64,000 nt of DNA. It comes from an uncultured bacterium (lineage in GTDB: Bacteria; Patescibacteriota; Minisyncoccia; Phycocordibacterales; Phycocordibacteraceae). The stretch spans positions 208,682 through 272,681 of the forward strand of contig CAVXAH010000001.1 of NCBI GenBank assembly GCA_963759775.1, written 5' to 3'. Below the pieces are notes generated by a model. That model made no database searches and was not told the DNA's origin. It saw nothing but the letters and a program-made list of their open reading frames with translations. The position numbers and the translations under genes were made by a program. Within the stretch, counting starts at the first letter, position 1, and each line of letters starts with the position of its first letter. Positions 1,411 through 53,121 of the stretch are shown piece by piece.

Positions 1411-2109
1411 TTATGCTGTCTTACCGTGGAGATACGCAGCTGAAAGCTCGTTCAAAAGGAGTTTTACGGCCTCACGGGAGGCGTCATTTGCAACGATGGG
1501 GTACGTCGCATCTTTAATGTCGCAGTCGGAGCTCATGATGCCGATGATTGGAATACCCGCATCTCTTCCCTCTTTCACTGCATGCTTCTCACGCTTGGTG
1601 TCAACGACGAGGAGCGCGTCCGGCTTCTTTGCGAGTCCTGTAATACCGTCAAGACGCTCGGTGAGCCGCTTCTCTTCGCGACCAAGGAACACGAGCTCGA
1701 GCTTCGTGTGGCGCTTTGCAAGTGTGCCTGCCGCCTTCTCTTCCTTAAGGGATGCGAGGCGGTCAATACGCTTTTTGATTTCTACGAAATTGGAGATGGT
1801 GCCACCAAGCCAACGGGTTGAAACGTAGGGCTGACTTGCGGCCACGGCAGCCTGCTTTACGAGTGCAGAAATCTCCGTCTTGCCTCCGACGAAAAGGACG
1901 GTTTTGCCGGCCTTTGCGAGCGTTTCCATCACGCGCTTTGCGGACGCGAGCTGGTCCTCTGTTTTAGCAAGGTCAATGATTTCCGAGCGACCCTTTGCTC
2001 CCAAGAGGAAGGGCTTCATTGAGGGATGTCTTTTTGATTTGACCTGAGCGAAATGCGCCCCTGTATCAAAGAGGCGCTTTACGTCGGCCGTGTTGGTTCC
2101 TGAGGACAT
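1411..2109 (-). CDS. rpsB: 30S ribosomal protein uS2
   Basis: uS2-type sequence: HFAQVKSKRHPSMKPFL, VLFVGGK, YVSTRWLGGTISNF. The longest ORF runs to 2196, but the conserved N-terminus starts at ATG 2107-2109. Confidence 0.9.
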   Translation of the reverse strand: MSSGTNTADVKRLFDTGAHFAQVKSKRHPSMKPFLLGAKGRSEIIDLAKTEDQLASAKRVMETLAKAGKTVLFVGGKTEISALVKQAAVAASQPYVSTRWLGGTISNFVEIKKRIDRLASLKEEKAAGTLAKRHTKLELVFLGREEKRLTERLDGITGLAKKPDALLVVDTKREKHAVKEGRDAGIPIIGIMSSDCDIKDATYPIVANDASREAVKLLLNELSAAYLHGKTA

Positions 2110-5998: not shown

Positions 5999-6925
5999 TC
6001 ACTCTTCCCTTTCCAGACAGTAAGTGCCTCTTCCTGCAGCGCACGGGCATACGAAAATGTGAGCGGCCATGGCGCGCTTGAGGCAAGAGCGGCGCACGTA
6101 ATCGCCTGTAGGTTCTAGAGTTGCTTGGTCTGGGGTTTGTCCGCCTGAAAGAAACACAATGCCCGCCACCTCCTTTGGAACCGTCTTCATGAGTACCGCG
6201 ACCGTGTCCTCCGCCACCTCTTCCGGCGTATCTTTCTTTCCGCTTTCGCTTCCAGAAATCGCCATTGCGGTTTTGAGTATCACTCCCGGGAGGTCTACCG
6301 CCTGCTCATGCAGTACGTGAAAAAGTGCGCCGAGCGTTTCTTGCAAGACTTCCTTCGCACGAGCGCGCGAGTGCCTACCCGAAAGAAGTACTTCCGGCTC
6401 AAGGATAGGCACGAGACCTGCCTTTTGTGCCTCTTTCGCATAGCTTGCGAGACGTTTTACGTTTTCAAGAATCGCAGCAGAAGTGGGCAGCTTGTCGCCT
6501 TCAATACGAATGACTGCGCGCCATTTTGTAAACACCGCCCCCCGGTCGGCAAAGGTTTTGAGCCGCTCCGGCAAACCAAGGAGTCCTTTGGTAATAAGCT
6601 CATTCGCGCTTTCCAAAAAGGGCTCCGTACCCTCATCTACTTTTATACCTGGGGCAATACCGCGCTGTGCGAGAGATGTGGTAAAAAGCATGCCGTCCTC
6701 GCCTTCTTGTACAAATGTTTCTGCAAATAAAATGACCCCTGAAAGGTAGTCCGGAACGCCTGGCGCGTTTAAGAAAAGTTCGCGAAACTTCTTGCGCATT
6801 TCAAGCGTCGTATCAATACCATAGGAAGCAAGACGCTTGTCAGCAGAAGACACGCTCTCGTCGGCTGCGAGAATGCCTTTCCCGGGAGATACGAGGGCAC
6901 GTGCGCGCTCTCTAAGGTCCATCAT
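5999..6925 (-). CDS. fba: fructose-bisphosphate aldolase, class I (frame lost near 6115; homologous C-terminus continues to 5926)
   Basis: GKGILAADESVSSADKRL and FLSGGQ are class I aldolase motifs. After ...DQATL the conserved NLQAIT..SSAPWPLTFSYARALQEEAL continues in another frame to TAG 5926-5928. Confidence 0.85.
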   Translation of the reverse strand: MMDLRERARALVSPGKGILAADESVSSADKRLASYGIDTTLEMRKKFRELFLNAPGVPDYLSGVILFAETFVQEGEDGMLFTTSLAQRGIAPGIKVDEGTEPFLESANELITKGLLGLPERLKTFADRGAVFTKWRAVIRIEGDKLPTSAAILENVKRLASYAKEAQKAGLVPILEPEVLLSGRHSRARAKEVLQETLGALFHVLHEQAVDLPGVILKTAMAISGSESGKKDTPEEVAEDTVAVLMKTVPKEVAGIVFLSGGQTPDQATLEPTGDYVRRSCLKRAMAAHIFVCPCAAGRGTYCLEREE

Positions 6926-6958
6926 GCGTGGATTTTAGCATGCTAAAATCCACGCATG
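6923..6958. promoter_or_regulatory. 36-bp perfect palindrome, candidate divergent leaderless promoter/operator between fba and the PfkB kinase
   Basis: Sequence is CATGCGTGGATTTTAGCATGCTAAAATCCACGCATG. Each arm reads TGcTAAAAT-N6-ATG. The left CAT is the fba start codon. Confidence 0.6.
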
Positions 6959-25685: not shown

Positions 25686-25818
25686 CCCTAGGCGGGGCAG
25701 GTGCTTCAGAGGGGGTTGCGAGCGCGACGGCGCGAGCATTTCAGCCATTTTTTCAGCAGGAAAAATGGCGTACCCGAGGAGGTACCTGCCCCGCCTTCGG
25801 GTTTGCCGACAGACCCTA
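25686..25818 (+). repeat. structured intergenic repeat, family A, copy 3
   Basis: 12-bp outer stem GGCGGGGCAGGT / ACCTGCCCCGCC (25691-25702, 25784-25795). Core is GCGAGCATTTCAG-GCCATTTTT-TCAGCAGG-AAAAATGGC-GTACCCGAGGAGG. Confidence 0.6.
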
Positions 25819-26787
25819 GAGCGGGAGCAGCTTGGCGAGCTTATCGGAGAACTCTTTAAGGGCGTCTTTGTCCTCAACACTCACTTCAAGCACTTCCCTG
25901 CCTGTATCCCTACGCAGGAGCTCCGCTTTGGTTTCCCGTTCCGCAAGCGAAACAAGGTCTATTTTTGACAGGATGATAACCTCCTTCTTTTCACCAAGCG
26001 CATGCCCGAATGCCTCAAGCTCCTTGCGTACCTCCCGGTATGCCGCAATAGGGTCGTCTTGGGTAGCCGAGACGAGATGAAAGATAACTCCAGTTCTTTC
26101 TATGTGTTTTAAAAACTTCGTACCAAGACCTCGTCCAGTCGAGGCTCCTTCAATAAGACCTGGAATGTCTGCGAGAATCCTGCCGTGGAAACTCCCGAGA
26201 GCCGGCTCAAGGGTGGTAAAGGCGTAGGCGCCCACCTTGGACTTCGCGCGGGTCAAAGCATTCAAAAGAGACGATTTCCCCGCATTTGGGAGCCCTACAA
26301 AACCCGCATCCGCGATGAGCTTAAGGGTAAGCAGTACATCTCCGCCTGCCGCCGGCTTCCCTGGGGTACATTGGAAGGGGTTCTGGTTCGTAGCACCTTT
26401 ATAGTGTGCGTTTCCCCATCCACCACCACCGCCCTTAAAAAGTACCGTGTGTTCTCCCTCTTTCGTAATTTCAAATTCCTCTCCTGTCTCTATAATGCGC
26501 GCCACGGTTCCTATTGGTACTTTGAGAAAGACCGGGTCGCCGTTTCCTCCATGACAGAGCTCGTTTCCTCCTGCTTCGCCGGGTTTTCCACGAAACTTCT
26601 TTTCGTATCGATATTTTGAGAGATACGCGAGGTCGTGGACTCCTTCCAAAATAACGTCTCCACCGCGACCGCCATCGCCGCCTCCCGGTCCTGCTCGCTC
26701 GGTGCCTTTAATATGCAGCCAGCGCACAACACCATCCCCGCCTTTCCCGGCGGTCGCATGAATCCTCACCTCATCAACAAATGCCAT
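25816..26787 (-). CDS. obg: GTPase Obg
   Basis: FVDEVRIHATAGKGGDGVVRW (Obg fold) and the G1 motif GLPNAGKSSLL. Confidence 0.9.
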   Translation of the reverse strand: MAFVDEVRIHATAGKGGDGVVRWLHIKGTERAGPGGGDGGRGGDVILEGVHDLAYLSKYRYEKKFRGKPGEAGGNELCHGGNGDPVFLKVPIGTVARIIETGEEFEITKEGEHTVLFKGGGGGWGNAHYKGATNQNPFQCTPGKPAAGGDVLLTLKLIADAGFVGLPNAGKSSLLNALTRAKSKVGAYAFTTLEPALGSFHGRILADIPGLIEGASTGRGLGTKFLKHIERTGVIFHLVSATQDDPIAAYREVRKELEAFGHALGEKKEVIILSKIDLVSLAERETKAELLRRDTGREVLEVSVEDKDALKEFSDKLAKLLPL

Positions 26788-26812
26788 CTCTGCACCATAG
26801 CAAACTTATCCG

Positions 26813-26848
26813 GAAAACAATACTACCATATATGGTAGTATTGTTTTC
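26813..26848. promoter_or_regulatory. 36-bp perfect palindrome abutting the yerC-like start codon (candidate operator / bidirectional extended -10 promoter)
   Basis: Sequence is GAAAACAATACTACCATATATGGTAGTATTGTTTTC. It reads TGgTAGTAT-N7-ATG(26849). The core AATACTACCATATATGGTAGTATT recurs at 27304-27345 and 50972-50995. Confidence 0.6.
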
Positions 26849-27280
26849 ATGAAAAAGAAAATAAATGACTTATCGGAAGCCGAACGCATCAAAACACTGG
26901 ACGCGCTCTACACCGCCGCAAGCAGTGTGCATACTCGTGCTGACATGAAAGCCTTCTTACGAGATCTGCTCACGGTGAGTGAGCGTGTGATGCTTGGGCG
27001 ACGTATTCTTATCGCACGCCTTTTGCTCCAAGGAGAGACGCGAGATGCTATACGCACGCGAACTGGTGCAGGGTACGCCACCATAGAGAGAGTGGGACAG
27101 TGGCTTGAAGACCAAATGCCTGGGTATGAGCAGGCTATTACGGGCATGGAGCGCGAATTTAAGACGCGGAGATTTTATATGCACTACAGCGCGCGCGAGG
27201 TATTGCGACGCCTTAAGAAACGCTACCCTCTCCACTTTCTGCTCTTCCCCGAACCATCTTCAAAAAAGAACCGCTCTTAA
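26849..27280 (+). CDS. TrpR-like YerC/YecD family DNA-binding protein
   Basis: LRDLLTVSERVMLGRRILIARLLLQGETRDAIRTRTGAGYATIERV matches the YerC/YecD Trp-repressor-like family. Confidence 0.75.
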   Translation: MKKKINDLSEAERIKTLDALYTAASSVHTRADMKAFLRDLLTVSERVMLGRRILIARLLLQGETRDAIRTRTGAGYATIERVGQWLEDQMPGYEQAITGMEREFKTRRFYMHYSAREVLRRLKKRYPLHFLLFPEPSSKKNRS

Positions 27281-27303
27281 TACGTCTACTCTACTCACTC
27301 CTA

Positions 27304-27345
27304 CAAAAGTAGAATACTACCATATATGGTAGTATTCTACTTTTG
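27304..27345. promoter_or_regulatory. 42-bp perfect palindrome between convergent yerC-like and secA genes (operator copy and/or terminator)
   Basis: Sequence is CAAAAGTAGAATACTACCATATATGGTAGTATTCTACTTTTG, with the same 24-bp core as at 26813-26848. Confidence 0.55.
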
Positions 27346-27388: not shown

Positions 27389-29921
27389 TTAGGCTTGAGG
27401 ATTTCCGATCACTATCCATCCATCCTCTTCCACGAGCCGTTCTGCTTTTTTATATTTGAGAGTCTGTGTTTCCTCACCCTTCTTGATGATAACGACATCG
27501 TTCCTGCCGTAGGCCGAGGTTTTCACGAGCGGAGCTTGTGCACTTCCTTCTTCACTCCCCTGCGCTACAAGCCGTGCGCGAGTCTTTTCTTCTTCAGTGC
27601 GAATGCGGGCGTAGTCGGCGGGAGCAATATTTGGCACCGTGCGACACACCGCTTCTTTGATTGCGGTTTCAAGCGCGCGGTAGCGCGAAAGTCCTTCGCG
27701 TCGGTACTCGATCAGAGGATCTCTTTGTCCGTACGCACGAAGTGACACTGAGCGCCGAAGGTAATCCATAGTATCCAAATGCTCCAACCAGAAAGTGTCG
27801 GTTGCCTGGAGCAGAAGCCGGCGCAAGAGCGCAATAAGTGATTCTGCACCGTATTCTTTTTTCTTCGCTTCAAGTGCTGTCTCGCCGCGTCATCTCCCTC
27901 GACGAGGTCACGAATGATGCTTCTCGACTTCTTGCGCAGAGCCCATGAGGGCGGCGCGACGGCGTGCGTATATAGCAAGACGCTGGGTGTTCATCACATC
28001 GTCGTAGGCAAGCACTTGTTTGCGTGAGTCAAAGTTGAACCCTTCTATGCGCGTTTGCGCCGTCTCAAGGGACTTCGTAATCATGGAGCTCTCTATGGCT
28101 TCGTCTTCGGGAATGCCAAACGTTACCCATCACTTTCTTCAAGGTCTCCGACGCAAAAACGCGCATGAGTTTGTCTTCAAGCGACACATAGAACCTCGTT
28201 TCGCCCGGGTCGCCCTGACGGCCGGAACGACCGCGCAGCTGGTTATCAATACGACGCGCGTCGTGACGCTCGGTACCAATAATCGCAAGACCACCCGCGG
28301 CGAGAACCTCATCGCGCTCTGCTGGGTCGGTCGGCATGCCACCGAGCTTAATGTCAACACCTCGACCTGCGAGGTTTGTTGCTACCGTCACACGACCTTT
28401 GTGTCCCGCCTGCGCGATGATTTCTCCTTCGCGCTCGTGGTTTTTTGCGTTCAAGACTTCGTGCGGCACGCCGGCATCCCGCAGATACGAGCTCACCACC
28501 TCGTTGTCTTCAATAGAAACGGTACCCACCAAGACCGGCTGACCTTTCTCGTGCCGCGCCTTCACGTCGCGCGCAACTGCTTTGTATTTGCCGGCGGCTG
28601 TTTGGAAAATAAGGTCGTCAAAGTCCTTACGTGCGATTGGCTTGTGGGTTGGCACGACTACCACCTCAAGTCCGTACACCGTATAAAACTCTTCCTCCGA
28701 GCTAAGCGCGGTGCCTGTCATGCCCGCAAGTTTTGTGTACATGCGGAAATAATTTTGGAAGGTAACGGTTGCGTAGGTACGCGTCTCTGCTTTCACCGCG
28801 ACTCCCTCTCTCGCTTCAATAGCCTGATGCAGGCCGTCTGACCATCTTCGCCCTGGCTGCATGCGTCCGGTGAATTCATCCACAATCACAATCTCGCCGT
28901 CCCGCACGACGTACTCTTTGTCTTTACGGAAAAGTGCTTTCGCGCGCACCGCTGTCTCTAGGTGATGCGCGTACTTCATGCCGCCCTCGGTATAGATATT
29001 CTCCATGCCGAGCGCCTCTTCTGCCTTTTTGATGCCTGCATCCGTGAGTTGTATCGCCTTTTGCTTCTCATCCACACTGTAGTCTTCCCCTTCCTTGAAG
29101 CTCTCGGTAATCAATGCGAAACGTTCGTAGAATTTTTCGGAATCGCCCGCGGGGCCAGAAATGATGAGCGGGGTCCGCGCTTCGTCTATTAAAATGGAGT
29201 CGATTTCGTCGACTATGGCAAACGCATGCTCGCGCTGGTTTATCTGCGATGCGTCGTACGCGGTGTTGTCTCGCAAGTAGTCAAAACCGAGTTCGTTGTT
29301 GGTTGCGTAGGTAATGTCTGCTCCATAAGCTTCTTTTTTTGTCGCCGGTCGCAGATAGTCGTAAAATACGCGGAACGAGCCCTGCTCGTCACGCTCTGCA
29401 TCCTCGGCTTTCCGCACGTGTGATGCGTCGTATACATAGGAACCCGAAGAGGTGATGACGCCAACAGAAAGTCCGAGTGCCGCGTACACCTGTCCCATCC
29501 ACGCGCCGTCGCGGCGCGCGAGGTAGTCGTTTACCGTCACAATATGAACGCCCTTCCCCACAACCGCGGCGGCTGTTGCTGGAAGTGTAGCAACGAGCGT
29601 CTTTCCCTCTCCGGTTCGCATCTCGGCTATTTTGCCGCGAAGCAGAGCGAGCCCTCCCATGAGCTGTACGTCGTAGTGGCGTTCATTTAAAGTGCGGCGG
29701 GCGGCTTCACGCACGAGCGCAAAGACAAGTGGTACATCAGCGTCATGAACACCCTTCGAGGAACGCGTTCGCAGATCAGCTATTTTTTCCTTAAGCTCGT
29801 CATCGGTGAGTGCTTCCGCGAACCCCGCGAGAGCGTTTACGGAAGACACGACCTCGGCCGCGGACTTCAAAAAAGCCGCGGATTGGTTCTTAGAAAACAG
29901 CTTAGAGAGGAAACTCGCCAT
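27389..29921 (-). CDS. secA: preprotein translocase ATPase SecA (reading frame broken at least three times between approx 27880 and 28135)
   Basis: [14 protein letters not shown] and [14 protein letters not shown] motifs in ORF 28065..29921. Homologous sequence ([24 protein letters not shown].., [10 protein letters not shown]..) continues in other frames. It ends in ORF 27389..27826 ([13 protein letters not shown]). Confidence 0.85.
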
Positions 29922-41119: not shown

Positions 41120-42205
41120 TCATGGTGCTTGGAGCGTCTCTACCGTTGCGGTAAGCATGTTTTCAACAGAATACCGTTTGGCAGACTCCTCTGCACGTGC
41201 CGAGAGGTCCCTACGTATTTGGTCGTCTCCAAGCACTTTTCTAAGGGCGTTTTGCAGTGCGACGGAGTCTTCATGCGGGAAAAGGATTCCCATCTTTTCG
41301 TCACTGATGACTTCCGGGTTTCCGCCAACATTTGTCGCGACGACTGGTACGCCGAGCGAAACTGCTTCAATAAGGAGATGCGAGAGTCCTTCATATGCAG
41401 AATTGAGAACGAATACGTCCGCGCCCTTCATGACTGCAAGCGTATCTCCATGACTCAATACTCCAGTGAAGACGGCGCGACCCGGAAGCGCGTGCTTCGC
41501 TTTTGTCTCAAGCGAAGCACGGTCCGGACCATCACCCACGATCGCGAGGGACGCGCCCGGAATGCTCGAGACCGCGTGAACGACACCCTCTATACCTTTC
41601 CAGGGCACCAGTCGACCAGCTGTGACCACGAGCGGTCGCGGCAAAGCCGCGACCGCCTCCGGCACGTTTCCAACTTCTTCCGTCCTGACCGCATTGTAGA
41701 TAACCGTAATCTTGTCGCTTGGTACTCCCCACGCTTCCACCACACCCTTTAGGTATTTGCTTGGCACGATGACCTTGTGTGCCGCTTCTGCAGTGCGGTT
41801 TTGTATTTTTTGAAGTAGACGCACTTGAAACGACGGCTGTTTTGACTTCACGAATTCGTCGAGAGGCATTGAAACACCAAAACGCTGTCTCCCCTGCTCC
41901 CACGCATAGTCGCCCACAATCTTTACCACAAACGGTTTCCCCGCCCGCTTCGCCGCGTGCATTCCCGGGAGACCAACTGAAACGGGGTCAAGCGCCATAA
42001 CAAGGTCAGCGGTGCGTGCGGCACGGAGCACTCGCCGAAAATATACATAATGACGAAACAGTTTTGGGAAATGACGTACGTCGGAAAATTTCACGAGTTC
42101 AACATGAACGCCGCGCTTTGGCAATTCCTCCGCGAGAATCTTCGCGTAGGTTGCCGGGCCGCCAATTTCAGGCGGATACAAGGGTGTCGCGATGACGAGC
42201 TTCAT
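41120..42205 (-). CDS. glycosyltransferase, GT4/group 1
   Basis: EGLSHLLIEAVSLGVPVVATNVGGNPEVI. The true start is MKLVIATPLYPPEIGGPATY at ATG 42203-42205. The track extension to 42355 is antisense GIY-YIG sequence. Confidence 0.8.
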   Translation of the reverse strand: MKLVIATPLYPPEIGGPATYAKILAEELPKRGVHVELVKFSDVRHFPKLFRHYVYFRRVLRAARTADLVMALDPVSVGLPGMHAAKRAGKPFVVKIVGDYAWEQGRQRFGVSMPLDEFVKSKQPSFQVRLLQKIQNRTAEAAHKVIVPSKYLKGVVEAWGVPSDKITVIYNAVRTEEVGNVPEAVAALPRPLVVTAGRLVPWKGIEGVVHAVSSIPGASLAIVGDGPDRASLETKAKHALPGRAVFTGVLSHGDTLAVMKGADVFVLNSAYEGLSHLLIEAVSLGVPVVATNVGGNPEVISDEKMGILFPHEDSVALQNALRKVLGDDQIRRDLSARAEESAKRYSVENMLTATVETLQAP

Positions 42206-42486
42206 CCCGTTAGAGATAGGAAACGCTTTAGCCGGTTTTTGAGATACCGTTTGCCCGTCCCGGTTTTCAGGTACTTCTCTCGAGCTTCCGCGTCCTCCAG
42301 GTTGTGACATGCTTCGTAATATATCAGTTCGTACGGACGGTGCTTTTTTGTCCAACCGCGAGACCCTTTTTGATGCTGGCTGAAGCGTTTCCGTAAATCA
42401 TTTGTGACCCCCGTGTACCAATAATCGCTCGTGAGGCTTTTGATGACGTACACATAACACATTTTGTTATCTCTAACGGGATTCAT
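42202..42486 (-). CDS. GIY-YIG nuclease family protein (UPF0213/COG2827 type)
   Basis: MCYVYVIKSLTSDYWYTGVTNDLRKRFSQHQKG...YYEAC...AREKYLK matches the GIY-YIG pattern. The conserved start is ATG 42460-42462. The upstream in-frame ATG 42484-42486 lies in the duplicated target. Confidence 0.85.
   Translation of the reverse strand: MNPVRDNKMCYVYVIKSLTSDYWYTGVTNDLRKRFSQHQKGSRGWTKKHRPYELIYYEACHNLEDAEAREKYLKTGTGKRYLKNRLKRFLSLTG
42206..42480 (-). mobile_element. 275-bp inverted-repeat-bounded GIY-YIG cassette, copy 1
   Basis: Termini are CCCGTTAGAGATA / TATCTCTAACGGG. Flanking direct repeat is TTCAT (42201-42205, 42482-42486). It is identical to 43630-43904 except at 2 positions. Confidence 0.7.
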
Positions 42487-42495
42487 AACCCTATT

Positions 42496-43629
42496 CTAAC
42501 GGCTTACAAACAGCTGGTCGAATATCCTACGCATCGTAGAACTGATCAGGTTCCAATCATATTTTTCTGTAACCATCTTGAGTGCATTTGCCGTAACCTC
42601 GTTTGCTTTCTCCGGCCGCGCCAAAATATCTTTCACCGCTTCAGCAATCTGCTCCGGTGAGTTTTTATCAACCGCCCAACCAGTCGTCGCCTTATCGGGA
42701 TTGCGTTTTTCGTCATATAGAAAATCTGCGATGCCTCCCTCTTGAGTTGTTATCACCGGAAGTCCGGCGGCCATTGCTTCCATAAACGAAACCCCGAAGC
42801 CTTCGGTCCTTGAGGGGCGAATAAAGATGTCGGCCGCATGCAAATACTGAGGAATACCAGCTCGGTCGACATGACCGAGAAACTCCACACGATTTTCTAT
42901 CTTGAGTTTTTTCACTAACGCCTTGAGTGAACCCTCTTCCGGCCCACTGCCGAGTATTTGAAATTGCACCGAATCAGGCAACAGACGGAGAGCCTTTATA
43001 ACATCGTCAATCGCATTTTTATGCACAAGTCTTGAGGTCGTAATAAGTACGGTCTCCCTGTGTGAAATTGGTGCCCCTGCAAACTTCGTTACATCGACTC
43101 CGTTCGGCACGAGGTGAATTGCTCCTTTGAAATGCCGTGCGCGTGCCCACTTGGCGAGATAATTTGAAAGCGGCAGTACCACCTTCGCCTTAGTAAACGC
43201 TTGCGCAAAAAGTGGCCAGAGCGGCAACATCGTACGCTCAATATGCGCTATAGGGTCCCCTTCTTGGAGACTGAGCGCATACGGTACCTCCGGATGAAAG
43301 GTGTGAAAATGTGCGGCAGGAATGCCTGATGAGTGCGCCATCATAGCCCACGCCGCATCAAAATGATGTTCTTTATGGAGTGCTGCTGCCTTGCGAGCCG
43401 CTGTGTATTGAAAAAAAAGTTTGCTCAACCTTCCGTTGCTACTTCCGATACGGTGTACAAACACATTGCCGATTTTTTCTTCACGTTTCTCCAAGACGGA
43501 GAAACGCATGGTCACCATGTGAAATTCAATTTCCTTCGGATCAATCCGGTCCGTAACTTCTTTGATCGCCACTTCAGCCCCGCCCACGTGTGGATAGTAT
43601 GCGAGAGAGAAAATAAGCACGCGCTTCAT
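42496..43629 (-). CDS. glycosyltransferase, GT4/group 1
   Basis: EGFGVSFMEAMAAGLPVITTQEGGIADFL. The true start is MKRVLIFSLAYYPHVGGAEV at ATG 43627-43629. Confidence 0.8.
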   Translation of the reverse strand: MKRVLIFSLAYYPHVGGAEVAIKEVTDRIDPKEIEFHMVTMRFSVLEKREEKIGNVFVHRIGSSNGRLSKLFFQYTAARKAAALHKEHHFDAAWAMMAHSSGIPAAHFHTFHPEVPYALSLQEGDPIAHIERTMLPLWPLFAQAFTKAKVVLPLSNYLAKWARARHFKGAIHLVPNGVDVTKFAGAPISHRETVLITTSRLVHKNAIDDVIKALRLLPDSVQFQILGSGPEEGSLKALVKKLKIENRVEFLGHVDRAGIPQYLHAADIFIRPSRTEGFGVSFMEAMAAGLPVITTQEGGIADFLYDEKRNPDKATTGWAVDKNSPEQIAEAVKDILARPEKANEVTANALKMVTEKYDWNLISSTMRRIFDQLFVSR

Positions 43630-43910
43630 CCCGTTAGAGATAGGAAACGCTTCAGGCGGTTTTTGAGATACCGTTTGCCCGTCCCGGTTTTCAGGTACTT
43701 CTCTCGAGCTTCCGCGTCCTCCAGGTTGTGACATGCTTCGTAATATATCAGTTCGTACGGACGGTGCTTTTTTGTCCAACCGCGAGACCCTTTTTGATGC
43801 TGGCTGAAGCGTTTCCGTAAATCATTTGTGACCCCCGTGTACCAATAATCGCTCGTGAGGCTTTTGATGACGTACACATAACACATTTTGTTATCTCTAA
43901 CGGGACTCAT
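43626..43910 (-). CDS. GIY-YIG nuclease family protein (second copy)
   Basis: Same protein as 42202..42486 from codon 9 onward. It differs only at residue 2 (S for N), which lies outside the inverted repeat. Confidence 0.85.
   Translation of the reverse strand: MSPVRDNKMCYVYVIKSLTSDYWYTGVTNDLRKRFSQHQKGSRGWTKKHRPYELIYYEACHNLEDAEAREKYLKTGTGKRYLKNRLKRFLSLTG
43630..43904 (-). mobile_element. 275-bp inverted-repeat-bounded GIY-YIG cassette, copy 2
   Basis: Same termini as copy 1. Flanks are CTTCAT / ACTCAT (ATGA on the coding strand). The upstream gene's stop TGA and the downstream gene's ATG both lie in the flanks. Confidence 0.7.
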
Positions 43911-50518: not shown

Positions 50519-51811
50519 CTATTGTTTTAGTACTAAATTATCTGCAATCTTGTATATATCTCCAGCGCCCATGGTCATGACAGCATCACCCTCTTTTGGT
50601 TCATTCCCAAATAAACGTTCAATTTCTTCAAAGGTGGACGCTGATGCATTTTGACCGTTGCCGCGAATACGCTCTGCAAGCAGTGCGCTTGAAATAGATT
50701 TGTCTGGCTTTTCGCGCGCAGCATAAATGGGGGCGATCACAACTTCATCAGTGTCAACAAATGCAGCCGCAAAGTCCTCAAACAAATCACGCGTGCGACT
50801 GTAGAGGTGAGGGTGAAATGCGACGAACACTTTTCCTTTCGTCTGCGCACGGAGCGCTTTGAGTGTTTCTTTTATTGCCGTCGGGTGGTGTGCGTAGTCG
50901 TCATACACCTCTGCCCCGTTCTTCGTCTTCCCTTTGTATTCAAAACGTCGCCATGTGCCTTGAAAGTCAGCAATACTACCATATATGGTAGTATTCTCGA
51001 CCTTGGGGAGAATAAAACGTGCGGCGGCAAGTGCGGCGCGCGCGTTCATGCGGTTAAATTCGCCCGGGAGTTTGAGTGGAGGCACTTCCTCTTTGGTGTA
51101 GTCGATGATGTGGGCCCGCGCCTCGCGGAGCACTTCTTTGATGTTTGGATTATTTGGATCGGTAACGATCGCACCGTCTGCGGGTACGCGGGCAACGGCT
51201 TTTCGGAAGGTGTCTTGGAGGGCGACGAGCGAGGGAAACCAGTCCGTGTGGTCCCACTCAAGATTCGTAATAACGAGAATGTGCGGCGAGAGCTCAAGAA
51301 GATGGTCTCTGTATTCGCATGCCTCAACCACAAAGAGGTCGTTTGCTCCATCTGCAAGATAGTTACTCCCGAAATCTTTCACGATTGAACCTATGATGGC
51401 AGTTGGGTGCGCCCCCGCGTCTTTCAAAATTTTGGCGAGCATGCCGGTTGTAGTCGTCTTCCCATGCGTCCCCGAGATGGCGATGGTACGCTTCCCTGCC
51501 GAGACTTTTCCAAGCATCCCGAAATATGAAAGCTGTGGAATGCCGAGCTCTTTTGCGCGAGCGCGCTCGGGGTTGCTTTCCGGTACTGCGTCGCTGTACA
51601 CCACTGCCTCGACACCTGACGGAACATTTTCCTTTTTCTGTCCTATCTTGACCTTGATACCCTTGGATTCAAGAAGAACCGTTGTAGCAGACGCTTCGCG
51701 ATCAGAACCGGAAACAGTCGCACCTTCGTGTGCGAACAGCTGCGCAAGTGCCGACATACCGATACCACCGATGCCGACAAAATGAATTCGCTTTGGGTGT
51801 TTATACGCCAT
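50519..51811 (-). CDS. murC: UDP-N-acetylmuramate--L-alanine ligase
   Basis: IHFVGIGGIGMSALAQLF and ISGTHGKTTTTGM. Confidence 0.9.
   Translation of the reverse strand: MAYKHPKRIHFVGIGGIGMSALAQLFAHEGATVSGSDREASATTVLLESKGIKVKIGQKKENVPSGVEAVVYSDAVPESNPERARAKELGIPQLSYFGMLGKVSAGKRTIAISGTHGKTTTTGMLAKILKDAGAHPTAIIGSIVKDFGSNYLADGANDLFVVEACEYRDHLLELSPHILVITNLEWDHTDWFPSLVALQDTFRKAVARVPADGAIVTDPNNPNIKEVLREARAHIIDYTKEEVPPLKLPGEFNRMNARAALAAARFILPKVENTTIYGSIADFQGTWRRFEYKGKTKNGAEVYDDYAHHPTAIKETLKALRAQTKGKVFVAFHPHLYSRTRDLFEDFAAAFVDTDEVVIAPIYAAREKPDKSISSALLAERIRGNGQNASASTFEEIERLFGNEPKEGDAVMTMGAGDIYKIADNLVLKQ
50972..50995. promoter_or_regulatory. 24-bp perfect palindrome inside murC, identical to the yerC-flanking core
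   Basis: AATACTACCATATATGGTAGTATT encodes NTTIYGSI of MurC. Confidence 0.55.
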
Positions 51812-53121
51812 ACGATTTCACAATAGTATTGAACTCGTCGCCCCGATCATACTCGTTTTTAAACATTCCGAACGACGCGAAAGCGGGAGAAAAAAGAATG
51901 GCGTCGCCTGGGTTTGCATGCAACCACGCATCAGCAACCGCTTTCTTGAGCGAGTCGTAAACAGGAGCGTCAGGTAGCAAGCTCTTGATACGGTCCGTAC
52001 CGGTACCGGCAAGCAAAATCACTCGCTTCGTAACTGTGGGCAGTGCAAAAAGAAGTGCATCCATCTCAAGTCCTTTGTCCGCTCCGCCCATGATGAGTAC
52101 CGATTGGTTTTGGGATGAGAGCTTTTAGGGCGGCGACTGTCGCTTCGGGAGTTGTCGCGGTGGTGTCGTTGTATATTTGGATTTTACCGCGCTCAAAACA
52201 GAGCTCGAGACGACCAGAAACTCCTTTAAATGCCTCTAGCACTTTGCGACTCACGTCATCCGAGATTCCGTACGTGCGAGCGGTGGCGAGTGCGAGCGCG
52301 GCATTATAGCGATTGTGCTCCCCGGGAATCTTGAGCTTCCAGGTGTCCGGCAATTTCGCCGCATCAACCACAGCAATTTTTGACAAGATACGGTCGCCGT
52401 ATTTCTCAATGATGGTTGGCGCGCACTGGCTACCTAGCACCAGCGTATCTCCTTCTTTTTGATTTAAGAAAATGTTCGCCTTATCTCCCAGATACGTATC
52501 CAAATTATTCTTATAGTAGTTTAGGTGGTCGGGGAAAAAGGTCGTAAAAACACCAATGTGCGGGCTTATTTTAGCCTCTCCAAAACCTTGACACTGCCAC
52601 GAATCAAGTTCAAGAACCGCCGTATGTTCTGGTGTCGCTTCCGGCAGAAGTCCTAGTGTTGAGACACCGCGTACGTTGCCGCCCAAAAGCACTGACTTCC
52701 CTGCCTCCTTGAGAATTGCGGCAACCATATGCGTGACGGTTGTTTTGCCGCGCGTGCCGGTAATGCCGATAAGAGGGACTTTTGAAAGTTCCGCAAAAAG
52801 ATCCGCGCTCATGCGGACGGGAATACCGTTCTTTCTTGCTTCGGCTATATAGGGAGAATCGAGCGGTACGCCAGCACCTTTCACAATAAGATCGCGCTCG
52901 CGGAAATCTTCGAGGCGATGTTCGCCAAGCACAAATTCTATATTGGAAAATCCTGCAAGTTCAGCAACCGACGAATCAAGTTGTTCGTGCGTCTTTAGGT
53001 CAGTGACGGTGAGTTTTGCACCACAGGAAGCAAGGTATTTAGCATCTCCCACACCTCGACCAAGCAAGCCGAGGCCCATCACGGTGATTCGTTTGTCGCG
53101 GAAAAATGCTGACGCATCCAT
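51801..53121 (-). CDS. murD: UDP-N-acetylmuramoylalanine--D-glutamate ligase (frame lost near 52123-52126)
   Basis: ORF 52066..53121 (ITGTRGKTTVTHM) and ORF 51801..52091 (MGGADKGLEMD...SPAFASFGMFKNEYDRGDEF) are the two parts of MurD. They are joined across an A4/T4 run. Confidence 0.85.

Follow-up and report, generated by a model that had tools for sequence, protein, structure and literature searches.

Why does a bacterial regulator gene lie between two long perfect palindromes with the same core? The question is raised by a 64,000-nucleotide stretch of contig CAVXAH010000001.1 from an uncultured Patescibacteriota bacterium (assembly GCA_963759775.1, positions 208,682 to 272,681; hereafter the window), in which a YerC-like gene for a TrpR-family protein (hereafter yerC) is preceded by a 36-bp palindrome and followed by a 42-bp one. 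We think that the 24-mer common to both palindromes, AATACTACCATATATGGTAGTATT, is probably the operator of the homodimeric TrpR/HisR-like protein encoded between the copies. The upstream copy (O1) would be an autoregulatory operator combined with a leaderless promoter, the downstream copy (O2) a second site of the same specificity, and the copies elsewhere a small regulon.

Two palindromes sharing a 24-mer bracket the regulator gene

The palindromes are real and far from chance. When up to three mismatches are allowed, the 24-mer occurs exactly three times in the window and not once in 100 dinucleotide-preserving shuffles, and of the only four perfect palindromes with a half-length of at least 9 found in the window, three are this element. 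O1 fills much of the 61-bp spacer between yerC and the divergent gene obg, and the base right after it, 26849, is the A of the yerC ATG. O2 begins 24 nt past the last base of the stop codon (27280), with 23 nt between, and lies before the end of the convergent gene secA (27389). In each copy the motif TGGTAGTAT is present on both strands. This anatomy, including the lengths of both palindromes, their places and the shared core, had been described in the initial annotation and is confirmed here. Two bracketing copies are not the whole set, however: a third exact 24-mer inside murC, and a wider group of intragenic sites in other genomes, had been overlooked.

Conservation of the element around yerC-like genes

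A scan with ATACTACCATNNATGGTAGTAT over one genome per species gave nine loci (numbered with the prefix L below), eight of them from Patescibacteria (labelled Kaiserbacteria, Falkowbacteria, Parcubacteria, Saccharibacteria or unclassified). In these eight the core is identical, and the outer arms are different yet complementary. The site stands directly before a yerC homologue in L001 and L006, the latter with the gene order of the window (secA-yerC-site-obg-gatB), inside murC in L004 and inside a mutY-like gene in L002 and L005; in the remaining loci it is found at gene boundaries. The ninth locus, L008, belongs to a metagenome-assembled genome of Binatia and has ATACTACCATTTATGGTAGTAT at 1634-1655, with TT at its centre, apparently inside or overlapping a short open reading frame (ORF; 1432-1743, minus strand) and with no adjoining yerC-like gene; this palindrome is probably unrelated.

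We then searched metagenomes with the protein and obtained 58 yerC-like loci of 34-74% identity. Most of them have an ATATAT-centred palindrome before the gene, and in the more distant groups the arms of an inverted repeat enclose a conserved 6-nt centre instead. A second copy follows just past the stop codon in about 35 of the 58, so that two-sided bracketing is a conserved feature and not a peculiarity of the window. In many related loci the palindrome ends 0-10 nt before the yerC ATG. The divergent gene beside yerC is usually obg in the closest loci, and secA is the convergent neighbour in L006, L011, L013, L014, L016 and L026. In L014 an obg gene that does not adjoin yerC also has a related palindrome in front of it.

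The sequence of the arms changes between lineages (ACC/GGT, ACG/CGT, ATC/GAT, TCC/GGA, CCTCC/GGAGG, GTCCC/GGGAC, TTATC/GATAA and others, 14 types altogether), and the copies of one genome change together. Among 21 non-redundant genomes the upstream and downstream arms agree at 11.5 of 12 bases within a genome versus 7.0 of 12 between genomes (permutation p ≤ 5e-5), and extra copies in L020, L029, L038 and L071 follow the arm type of their own genome. The T at position 7, counted from the centre, hardly varies, and neither does the central ATA|TAT. In the distant groups L043, L045, L046, L050, L057 and L058 the 6-nt centre is not palindromic (AATGAT, GATGGT, TATGAT) and is the same in both copies, the downstream copy being inverted in L043, L045, L050 and L057 and direct in L046 and L058. 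Because copies match within a genome, a sequence-specific reader that changes together with the site is needed, and yerC is the candidate since this gene is always present. The element belongs to a set of sites, few in copy number and specific to each lineage, that goes with a TrpR/HisR-like regulator across the Patescibacteria.

In L029 nine copies of CATTTCATATATGAAATG at 933-1927 form arrays to either side of the yerC homologue, with a spacing of about 50 bp; these recall iteron or centromere-like arrays and hint at cooperative or higher-order binding. We also considered a phage-borne element and rejected it: a viral scan with the 18-mer core gave two matches on low-GC phage contigs, neither beside a yerC-like gene, which we judged to be chance.

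A probable leaderless promoter in the upstream copy

The right arm of O1 contains an extended -10-like box at a short distance from the ATG. Such boxes are common in the window: a TANNNT hexamer is found 5-9 nt before the ATG, most often at 7 nt as for yerC, in 17 of the 50 long ORFs that served as the gene set, compared with a background of 4-5.5% at random positions or at all ATG triplets. Shine-Dalgarno-like motifs were seen before 5 of the 50. This suggests that leaderless mRNAs are widespread in this genome. In about 20 related loci the palindrome centre is 18-21 nt from the ATG. The TGnTAGTAT box is kept in the upstream right arm with its hexamer ending 6-9 nt before the ATG. In L011, L013 and L024 a change to TTCC/GGAA is seen in the left arm and in the downstream copy but not in the upstream right arm, which still reads GGTAGTAT; likewise TAGTGT is frequent in downstream copies where the upstream copies retain TAGTAT. 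The upstream right arm therefore resists the arm changes, implying a second constraint that fits a -10 box. Other lineages have the operator farther away, at 32, 60 or 71 nt from the start codon, and have a distinct -10 box 6 nt in front of that codon.

On the other side of the spacer, obg has a box of its own, TGCTATGGT, with the palindrome just upstream. The outer palindrome arm reads TTGTTT on the minus strand (26815-26820) and might lie near the -35 position of the obg promoter, with a 15-nt spacer.

The core had been proposed in the initial annotation to be an autoregulatory operator, a portable bidirectional extended -10 promoter, or both. For the upstream copy the operator combined with an extended -10 promoter is the best-supported explanation, judging from its conservation, its association with the gene and the matching of arms within genomes. 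The promoter proposal is supported for the upstream right arm as a leaderless yerC -10 box; its portable, bidirectional part is not, as the arms change elsewhere. We reject a pure bidirectional promoter as the general explanation, because positions critical for a -10 box vary in other copies and genomes (TCGTAGT, GGAAGT, GGGACA). None of the window copies other than the upstream one has an ATG at a leaderless distance.

The encoded protein is TrpR/HisR-like

The 143-aa ORF matches PF01371 (Trp_repressor) over residues 16-98 with 56.7 bits (cut-off 27) and TIGR02531 (YerC/YecD) with 43.0 bits, a borderline score against its cut-off of 42.2. The nearest sequences in the PDB are the HisR-type entries 3FRW, 3KOR and 3G1C (E 1e-7 to 1e-5), followed by TrpR (about 4e-3). 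An AlphaFold model (mean predicted local distance difference test score, pLDDT, 72.5) again gave 3FRW, 3KOR and TrpR as the top fold matches, with weak E-values, the model being a monomer of an intertwined dimer. The family had been supposed at first to be uncharacterised, which is not wholly so: YerC of Bacillus subtilis has been described as HisR, a histidine-responsive repressor of the TrpR family that occurs in Firmicutes and some further phyla, and its operators are the 20-bp palindromes cacTTTAnnnnnnTAAAgtg (PMC9413887). Binding of Ruminococcus gnavus HisR to its site in vitro depends on histidine, and in 183 genomes a HisR site lies ahead of the hisR gene itself (PMC9413887).

The operator reading is supported by this precedent, since both TrpR and HisR target 20-bp palindromes. 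The core in the window, cACTACC-ATATAT-GGTAGTg, has the same 7+6+7 layout as the HisR operator and the same CACT...AGTG ends, the proteins belong to the same Pfam family and sites before the own gene are common in both systems. They differ in the inner arm, which is ACC/GGT here around a fixed ATATAT centre, compared with cacTTTA-N6-TAAAgtg for HisR; one L014 site reads CACTTTCATATATGAAAGTG. They also differ in that the gene here is bracketed by two sites and that many sites are inside coding sequences. Escherichia coli TrpR, with its operators at trpO, aroH and trpR, has the same small, all-helical, intertwined-dimer fold and a palindromic operator over its own promoter, and both arginines that sandwich the corepressor are apparently present in the protein here, as far as the alignment tells. 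Sequence similarity to TrpR is weak, however (E about 4e-3), its half-site GTACTAGT and the spacing are unlike those here, its promoters have leaders, and the TrpR system has neither a second site after the gene nor conserved intragenic sites.

The Patescibacteria proteins further carry about 40 additional C-terminal residues with the invariant motif KKRYPLHFLLFP, a tail that HisR lacks. In the window protein the conserved tail reads KKRYPLHFLLFPEP, and the motif LKKRYPLHFLLFPEPK at residues ~120-135 is invariant in this protein and all homologues and absent from the TrpR and HisR proteins of about 100 aa. The tail motif has no match in Pfam, and the confidence of the AlphaFold model is low there.

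When close relatives are compared, a different arm type comes with a different recognition helix: ACC with GASHRTIRSV, ACG with GASPGT[VI]RNV, and ACT or ATT with GAGHGTIRSV. In this small sample the covariation supports YerC as the candidate reader and falls short of proof. The palindrome could instead be bound by some other factor that reads its sequence, for instance another regulator or a protein of the nucleoid or of segregation, with yerC as just one conserved target. Sites at many unrelated genes (murC, murD, mutY, uvrB, downstream of topA, upstream of obg) and the L029 arrays would fit such a factor, and the link between YerC and the sites rests on association and covariation. Yet the yerC-like gene is the one constant partner over all lineages and arm types, usually flanked on both sides, the layout of the site is that known for the TrpR/HisR family, and the changes in the recognition helix track those in the arms. 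We consider a different factor quite unlikely, and infer that YerC itself is the binder.

The downstream copy as possible hairpin and probable second site

Transcribed from either strand, O2 would form a 19-bp stem, with folding energies of -33.3 and -42.1 kcal/mol for the tested stretches and z-scores of -8.4 and -7.7. The stem is A+U-rich, the letters after it are UUUUGAUUU (plus strand) and UUUUG (minus strand), and convergent genes lie on either side. The downstream copy lies between yerC and convergent secA or a CTP synthase gene in the closest loci, and precedes a co-directional gene, for example rarA/mgsA, in other lineages; downstream copies have longer arms than upstream ones. The suggestion that the downstream copy acts as a terminator is thus backed by the stable hairpin, the U4 tail and the convergent genes, but not by a consensus terminator scan, which did not call it. 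A dual role of O2 as operator and bidirectional terminator is plausible.

These properties raise the possibility that the palindromes act through structure only, as RNA hairpins (bidirectional terminators, processing or stability elements) or DNA cruciforms with no binding by YerC, their location around yerC merely reflecting the positions of promoter and terminator. The folds are indeed very stable over the copies (-22 to -42 kcal/mol, z -4 to -8), and an AT-rich palindrome centre would favour cruciform extrusion. The downstream copies, with half-lengths of 17-30, are often between convergent genes and have A-tract and T-tract flanks, the outer arms vary yet remain complementary, and in L020, where a gene has been inserted beside yerC, the copy has stayed with the 3' end of secA. 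Structure does not explain, however, why the arm sequence is shared within a genome but different between genomes, nor the invariant ATA/TAT centre, the T at position 7 or the conserved non-palindromic centres of the distant groups. With a leaderless start, moreover, the upstream copy between divergent genes would go untranscribed. The same element is also found where a terminator makes no sense, between divergent promoters and inside coding sequences, and a strong terminator would not be expected to be under selection inside murC or mutY. No Rfam 15 family matched above the gathering score, and the only sub-threshold hits were miRNA-like and CsrC. A purely structural role is therefore unlikely in our view, and the operator remains the preferred explanation of both copies.

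The arrangement recalls the two-operator repression systems gal OE/OI, lac O1/O2 and deo, in which a promoter and a gene are enclosed by a pair of sites with one specificity, separated by a few hundred bp. Here, however, the second site is at the end of a convergent gene and may be a terminator, and helical phasing is not apparent. A phased DNA or repression loop between the two copies is unsupported, because the spacings have no 10.5-bp periodicity visible by eye.

Sites inside murC, mutY and other genes

The third 24-mer of the window encodes part of MurC, and in L004 the site recurs at the corresponding place of murC. Insertion of the element in frame can be rejected, as the encoded NTTIYGSI aligns without gaps with NEAILEAL of Haemophilus influenzae MurC. 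In the 120 MurC proteins closest to it ISDATIAESLA is the common form, and 26 have ..IY.. at the site. In 21 of these 26 the residues flanking IY have codons that can be reverse complements of each other (five types of pairs: T-G, S-G, T-R, I-D and V-D). MutY homologues gave a similar picture: 31 of 120 have the ..IY.. site and 30 of the 31 have compatible codon pairs, of nine types that also include M-H, A-G and P-G. By chance, 52 of the 400 possible residue pairs are codon-compatible. A check at the DNA level found perfect palindromes of other arm types in the murC genes of L070, L071 and L072, and in L071 the murD copy has the same arm type as the murC copy of that genome.

In L002 (1808-1855) and L005 (4131-4160) the site is inside the mutY-like gene, in a lysine-rich loop that has 4-12 more residues than homologues without the site. 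The genes beyond mutY are convergent in both loci, so that the mutY site is not the promoter of a downstream gene. Sites are also present in uvrB, a class Ib (Trp/Tyr) tRNA synthetase gene and, in two genomes, murD (L038 5445-5476; L028 839-860; L004 3653-3678; L071 4514-4531).

Because the codon changes are coupled and the positions orthologous, the sites of murC and mutY are old, fixed in position and under selection for palindromy at the level of DNA or RNA. Roadblock repression at conserved intragenic sites is known for CcpA (at its catabolite-responsive elements) and CodY, but the sites here differ from those in being near-perfect palindromes, long kept by coupled codon changes.

The intragenic copies could alternatively reflect a mobile or copied palindromic repeat, like repetitive extragenic palindromes, miniature inverted-repeat transposable elements or Rickettsia palindromic elements, or a DNA-uptake-type sequence that inserts in frame. 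The identical 24-mer at three places in the window and in distant lineages, and the mutY site that comes with a 4-12-aa insertion, could be taken for this. Neisseria uptake sequences, too, form inverted repeats at terminators and are enriched in repair genes. But copies are few, three in the 64 kb of the window and a single exact 22-mer in a complete chromosome of 993 kb. At the murC site residues are replaced with the length unchanged, positions are orthologous across genomes (murC, mutY, around yerC) with compensatory substitutions in place, and there are neither target-site duplications nor a transposase. A mobile repeat is thus very unlikely, and the high-copy generic repeat unrelated to the gene that had been considered at the outset is not what we see, the palindrome being tied to the yerC-like gene.

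We also considered a LexA/SOS-box or CIRCE-like site, an idea suggested by mutY, uvrB and rarA as neighbours, and rejected it because the half-sites are out of register with the consensus of either.

Proposed mechanism and points against it

In the mechanism that we favour, O1 would overlap the extended -10 promoter TGGTAGTAT, from which a leaderless yerC mRNA would start at or next to the ATG, and the protein bound at O1 would occlude RNA polymerase and so repress its own gene. As O1 is just upstream of what seems to be a separate leaderless promoter of obg, it probably also couples obg to the regulator. O2, with the same specificity at the 3' end of the gene, probably adds to the repression, or blocks or terminates the convergent transcription of yerC and secA; as RNA it would be a strong hairpin followed by U4. 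The murC copy would belong to a small conserved set (murC, murD, mutY, uvrB, the Trp/Tyr-type tRNA synthetase gene and gene boundaries) that forms the regulon, in which the additional sites might act as roadblocks or in some other mode.

Several observations do not sit easily with an operator. The three window copies are identical at 24 of 24 bases and there are no degenerate copies within three mismatches, which is sharper than in a usual regulon. The palindromy runs past the shared core into copy-specific arms, of which a dimeric regulator needs none: the palindromes of the window measure 36 and 42 bp, a perfect one inside the L002 mutY has 48 bp, and the longest elsewhere reach 56 bp. Template switching at replication, a mutational process known to perfect palindromes, or selection for a cruciform or hairpin, could contribute to this. 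The centre-to-centre spacing of the copies ranges over 441-548 bp with no obvious 10.5-bp phasing on inspection, a judgement made with no statistics. Some genomes have two related arm types (L004, L014, L028, L030). The target genes seen are yerC, obg, murC, murD, mutY, uvrB and the class Ib tRNA synthetase gene; within these short loci there are no his or trp biosynthesis genes and no histidine transporters, whereas the HisR regulon consists of his biosynthesis genes and histidine transporters, with histidine as the corepressor. Finally, YerC is implicated only via association and covariation, and the covariation is confounded by phylogeny.

A wider reading supposes a system common to the whole radiation, in which a ligand-sensing TrpR-like protein occupies palindromes that are long, perfect and prone to form cruciforms, both at the borders of genes and within essential ones (murC, murD, mutY, uvrB), where they would serve as roadblocks, terminators or topological boundaries; the conserved KKRYPLHFLLFP tail would be used for higher-order assembly, at which the L029 arrays hint, and growth, cell wall and DNA repair would be tied to a host-derived metabolite. 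We regard this reading as rather unlikely. If it is true, a DNA-level constraint has become visible in protein sequences; if only the operator reading set out above is true, the HisR/TrpR paradigm is extended to a new radiation.

A large part of bacterial diversity belongs to the Patescibacteria (candidate phyla radiation, CPR), hardly any of which have been cultivated and whose regulators are very few. The literature searched contains no CPR regulator with a defined operator, nothing relevant on CPR TrpR-like regulators or CPR leaderless promoters, and no description of this element, so that yerC and its palindromes would be among the first pairs of regulator and operator that can be put to the test in this group. 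The 14 arm types and the variants of the recognition helix are a natural specificity series for TrpR-family recognition. There is also evidence of few Shine-Dalgarno motifs in these genomes and of -10 boxes placed 6-8 nt before start codons, which matters for gene calling and expression. We find most noteworthy the conserved bracketing, the leaderless promoter that seems to be embedded in an operator and the intragenic sites that shape MurC and MutY, a clear case in which a DNA site inside essential genes dictates coupled amino-acid substitutions.

Features of the window

Table 1. Coordinates of the palindromes, promoter-like boxes and genes discussed in the text (window positions)
Feature	Position	Strand	Remarks
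Upstream palindrome, proposed operator O1	26813-26848		36 bp, perfect, GAAAACAATACTACCATATATGGTAGTATTGTTTTC; core 24-mer 26819-26842, centre between 26830 and 26831; read from the sequence
Downstream palindrome, proposed operator O2	27304-27345		42 bp, perfect, CAAAAGTAGAATACTACCATATATGGTAGTATTCTACTTTTG; core 24-mer 27313-27336
Third exact 24-mer	50972-50995		inside murC coding sequence; encodes NTTIYGSI
Extended -10-like box TGGTAGTAT	26833-26841	plus	hexamer TAGTAT 26836-26841, 7 nt before the yerC ATG
obg box TGCTATGGT	26794-26802	minus	6 nt before the obg ATG
yerC-like gene	26849-27280	plus	143-aa TrpR-family regulator
obg	25816-26787	minus	divergent neighbour of the yerC-like gene; start at 26787
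secA	27389-29921	minus	convergent neighbour; split over three ORFs in different frames
murC	50519-51811	minus	host gene of the third 24-mer
Fourth palindrome	6923-6958		36 bp, perfect, CATGCGTGGATTTTAGCATGCTAAAATCCACGCATG; unrelated

The pieces of secA are at 28065-29921, 27908-28084 and 27389-27826, and secA is intact in related loci. murD is split as well, into ORFs at 52066-53121 and 51801-52091. Both breaks are apparent frameshifts, either assembly errors or pseudogenes.

The first three letters of the fourth palindrome, CAT, are the start codon of the minus-strand gene at 5999-6925 and the last three are ATG, with a TAAAAT box 6 nt before each. It looks like a pair of back-to-back leaderless promoters, or the operator of another factor. 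The adjacent genes at 41120-42310 and 42496-43734 have the same first 12 residues (MSQPGGRGSSRE) and identical 25-nt upstream sequences, which looks like a tandem duplication.

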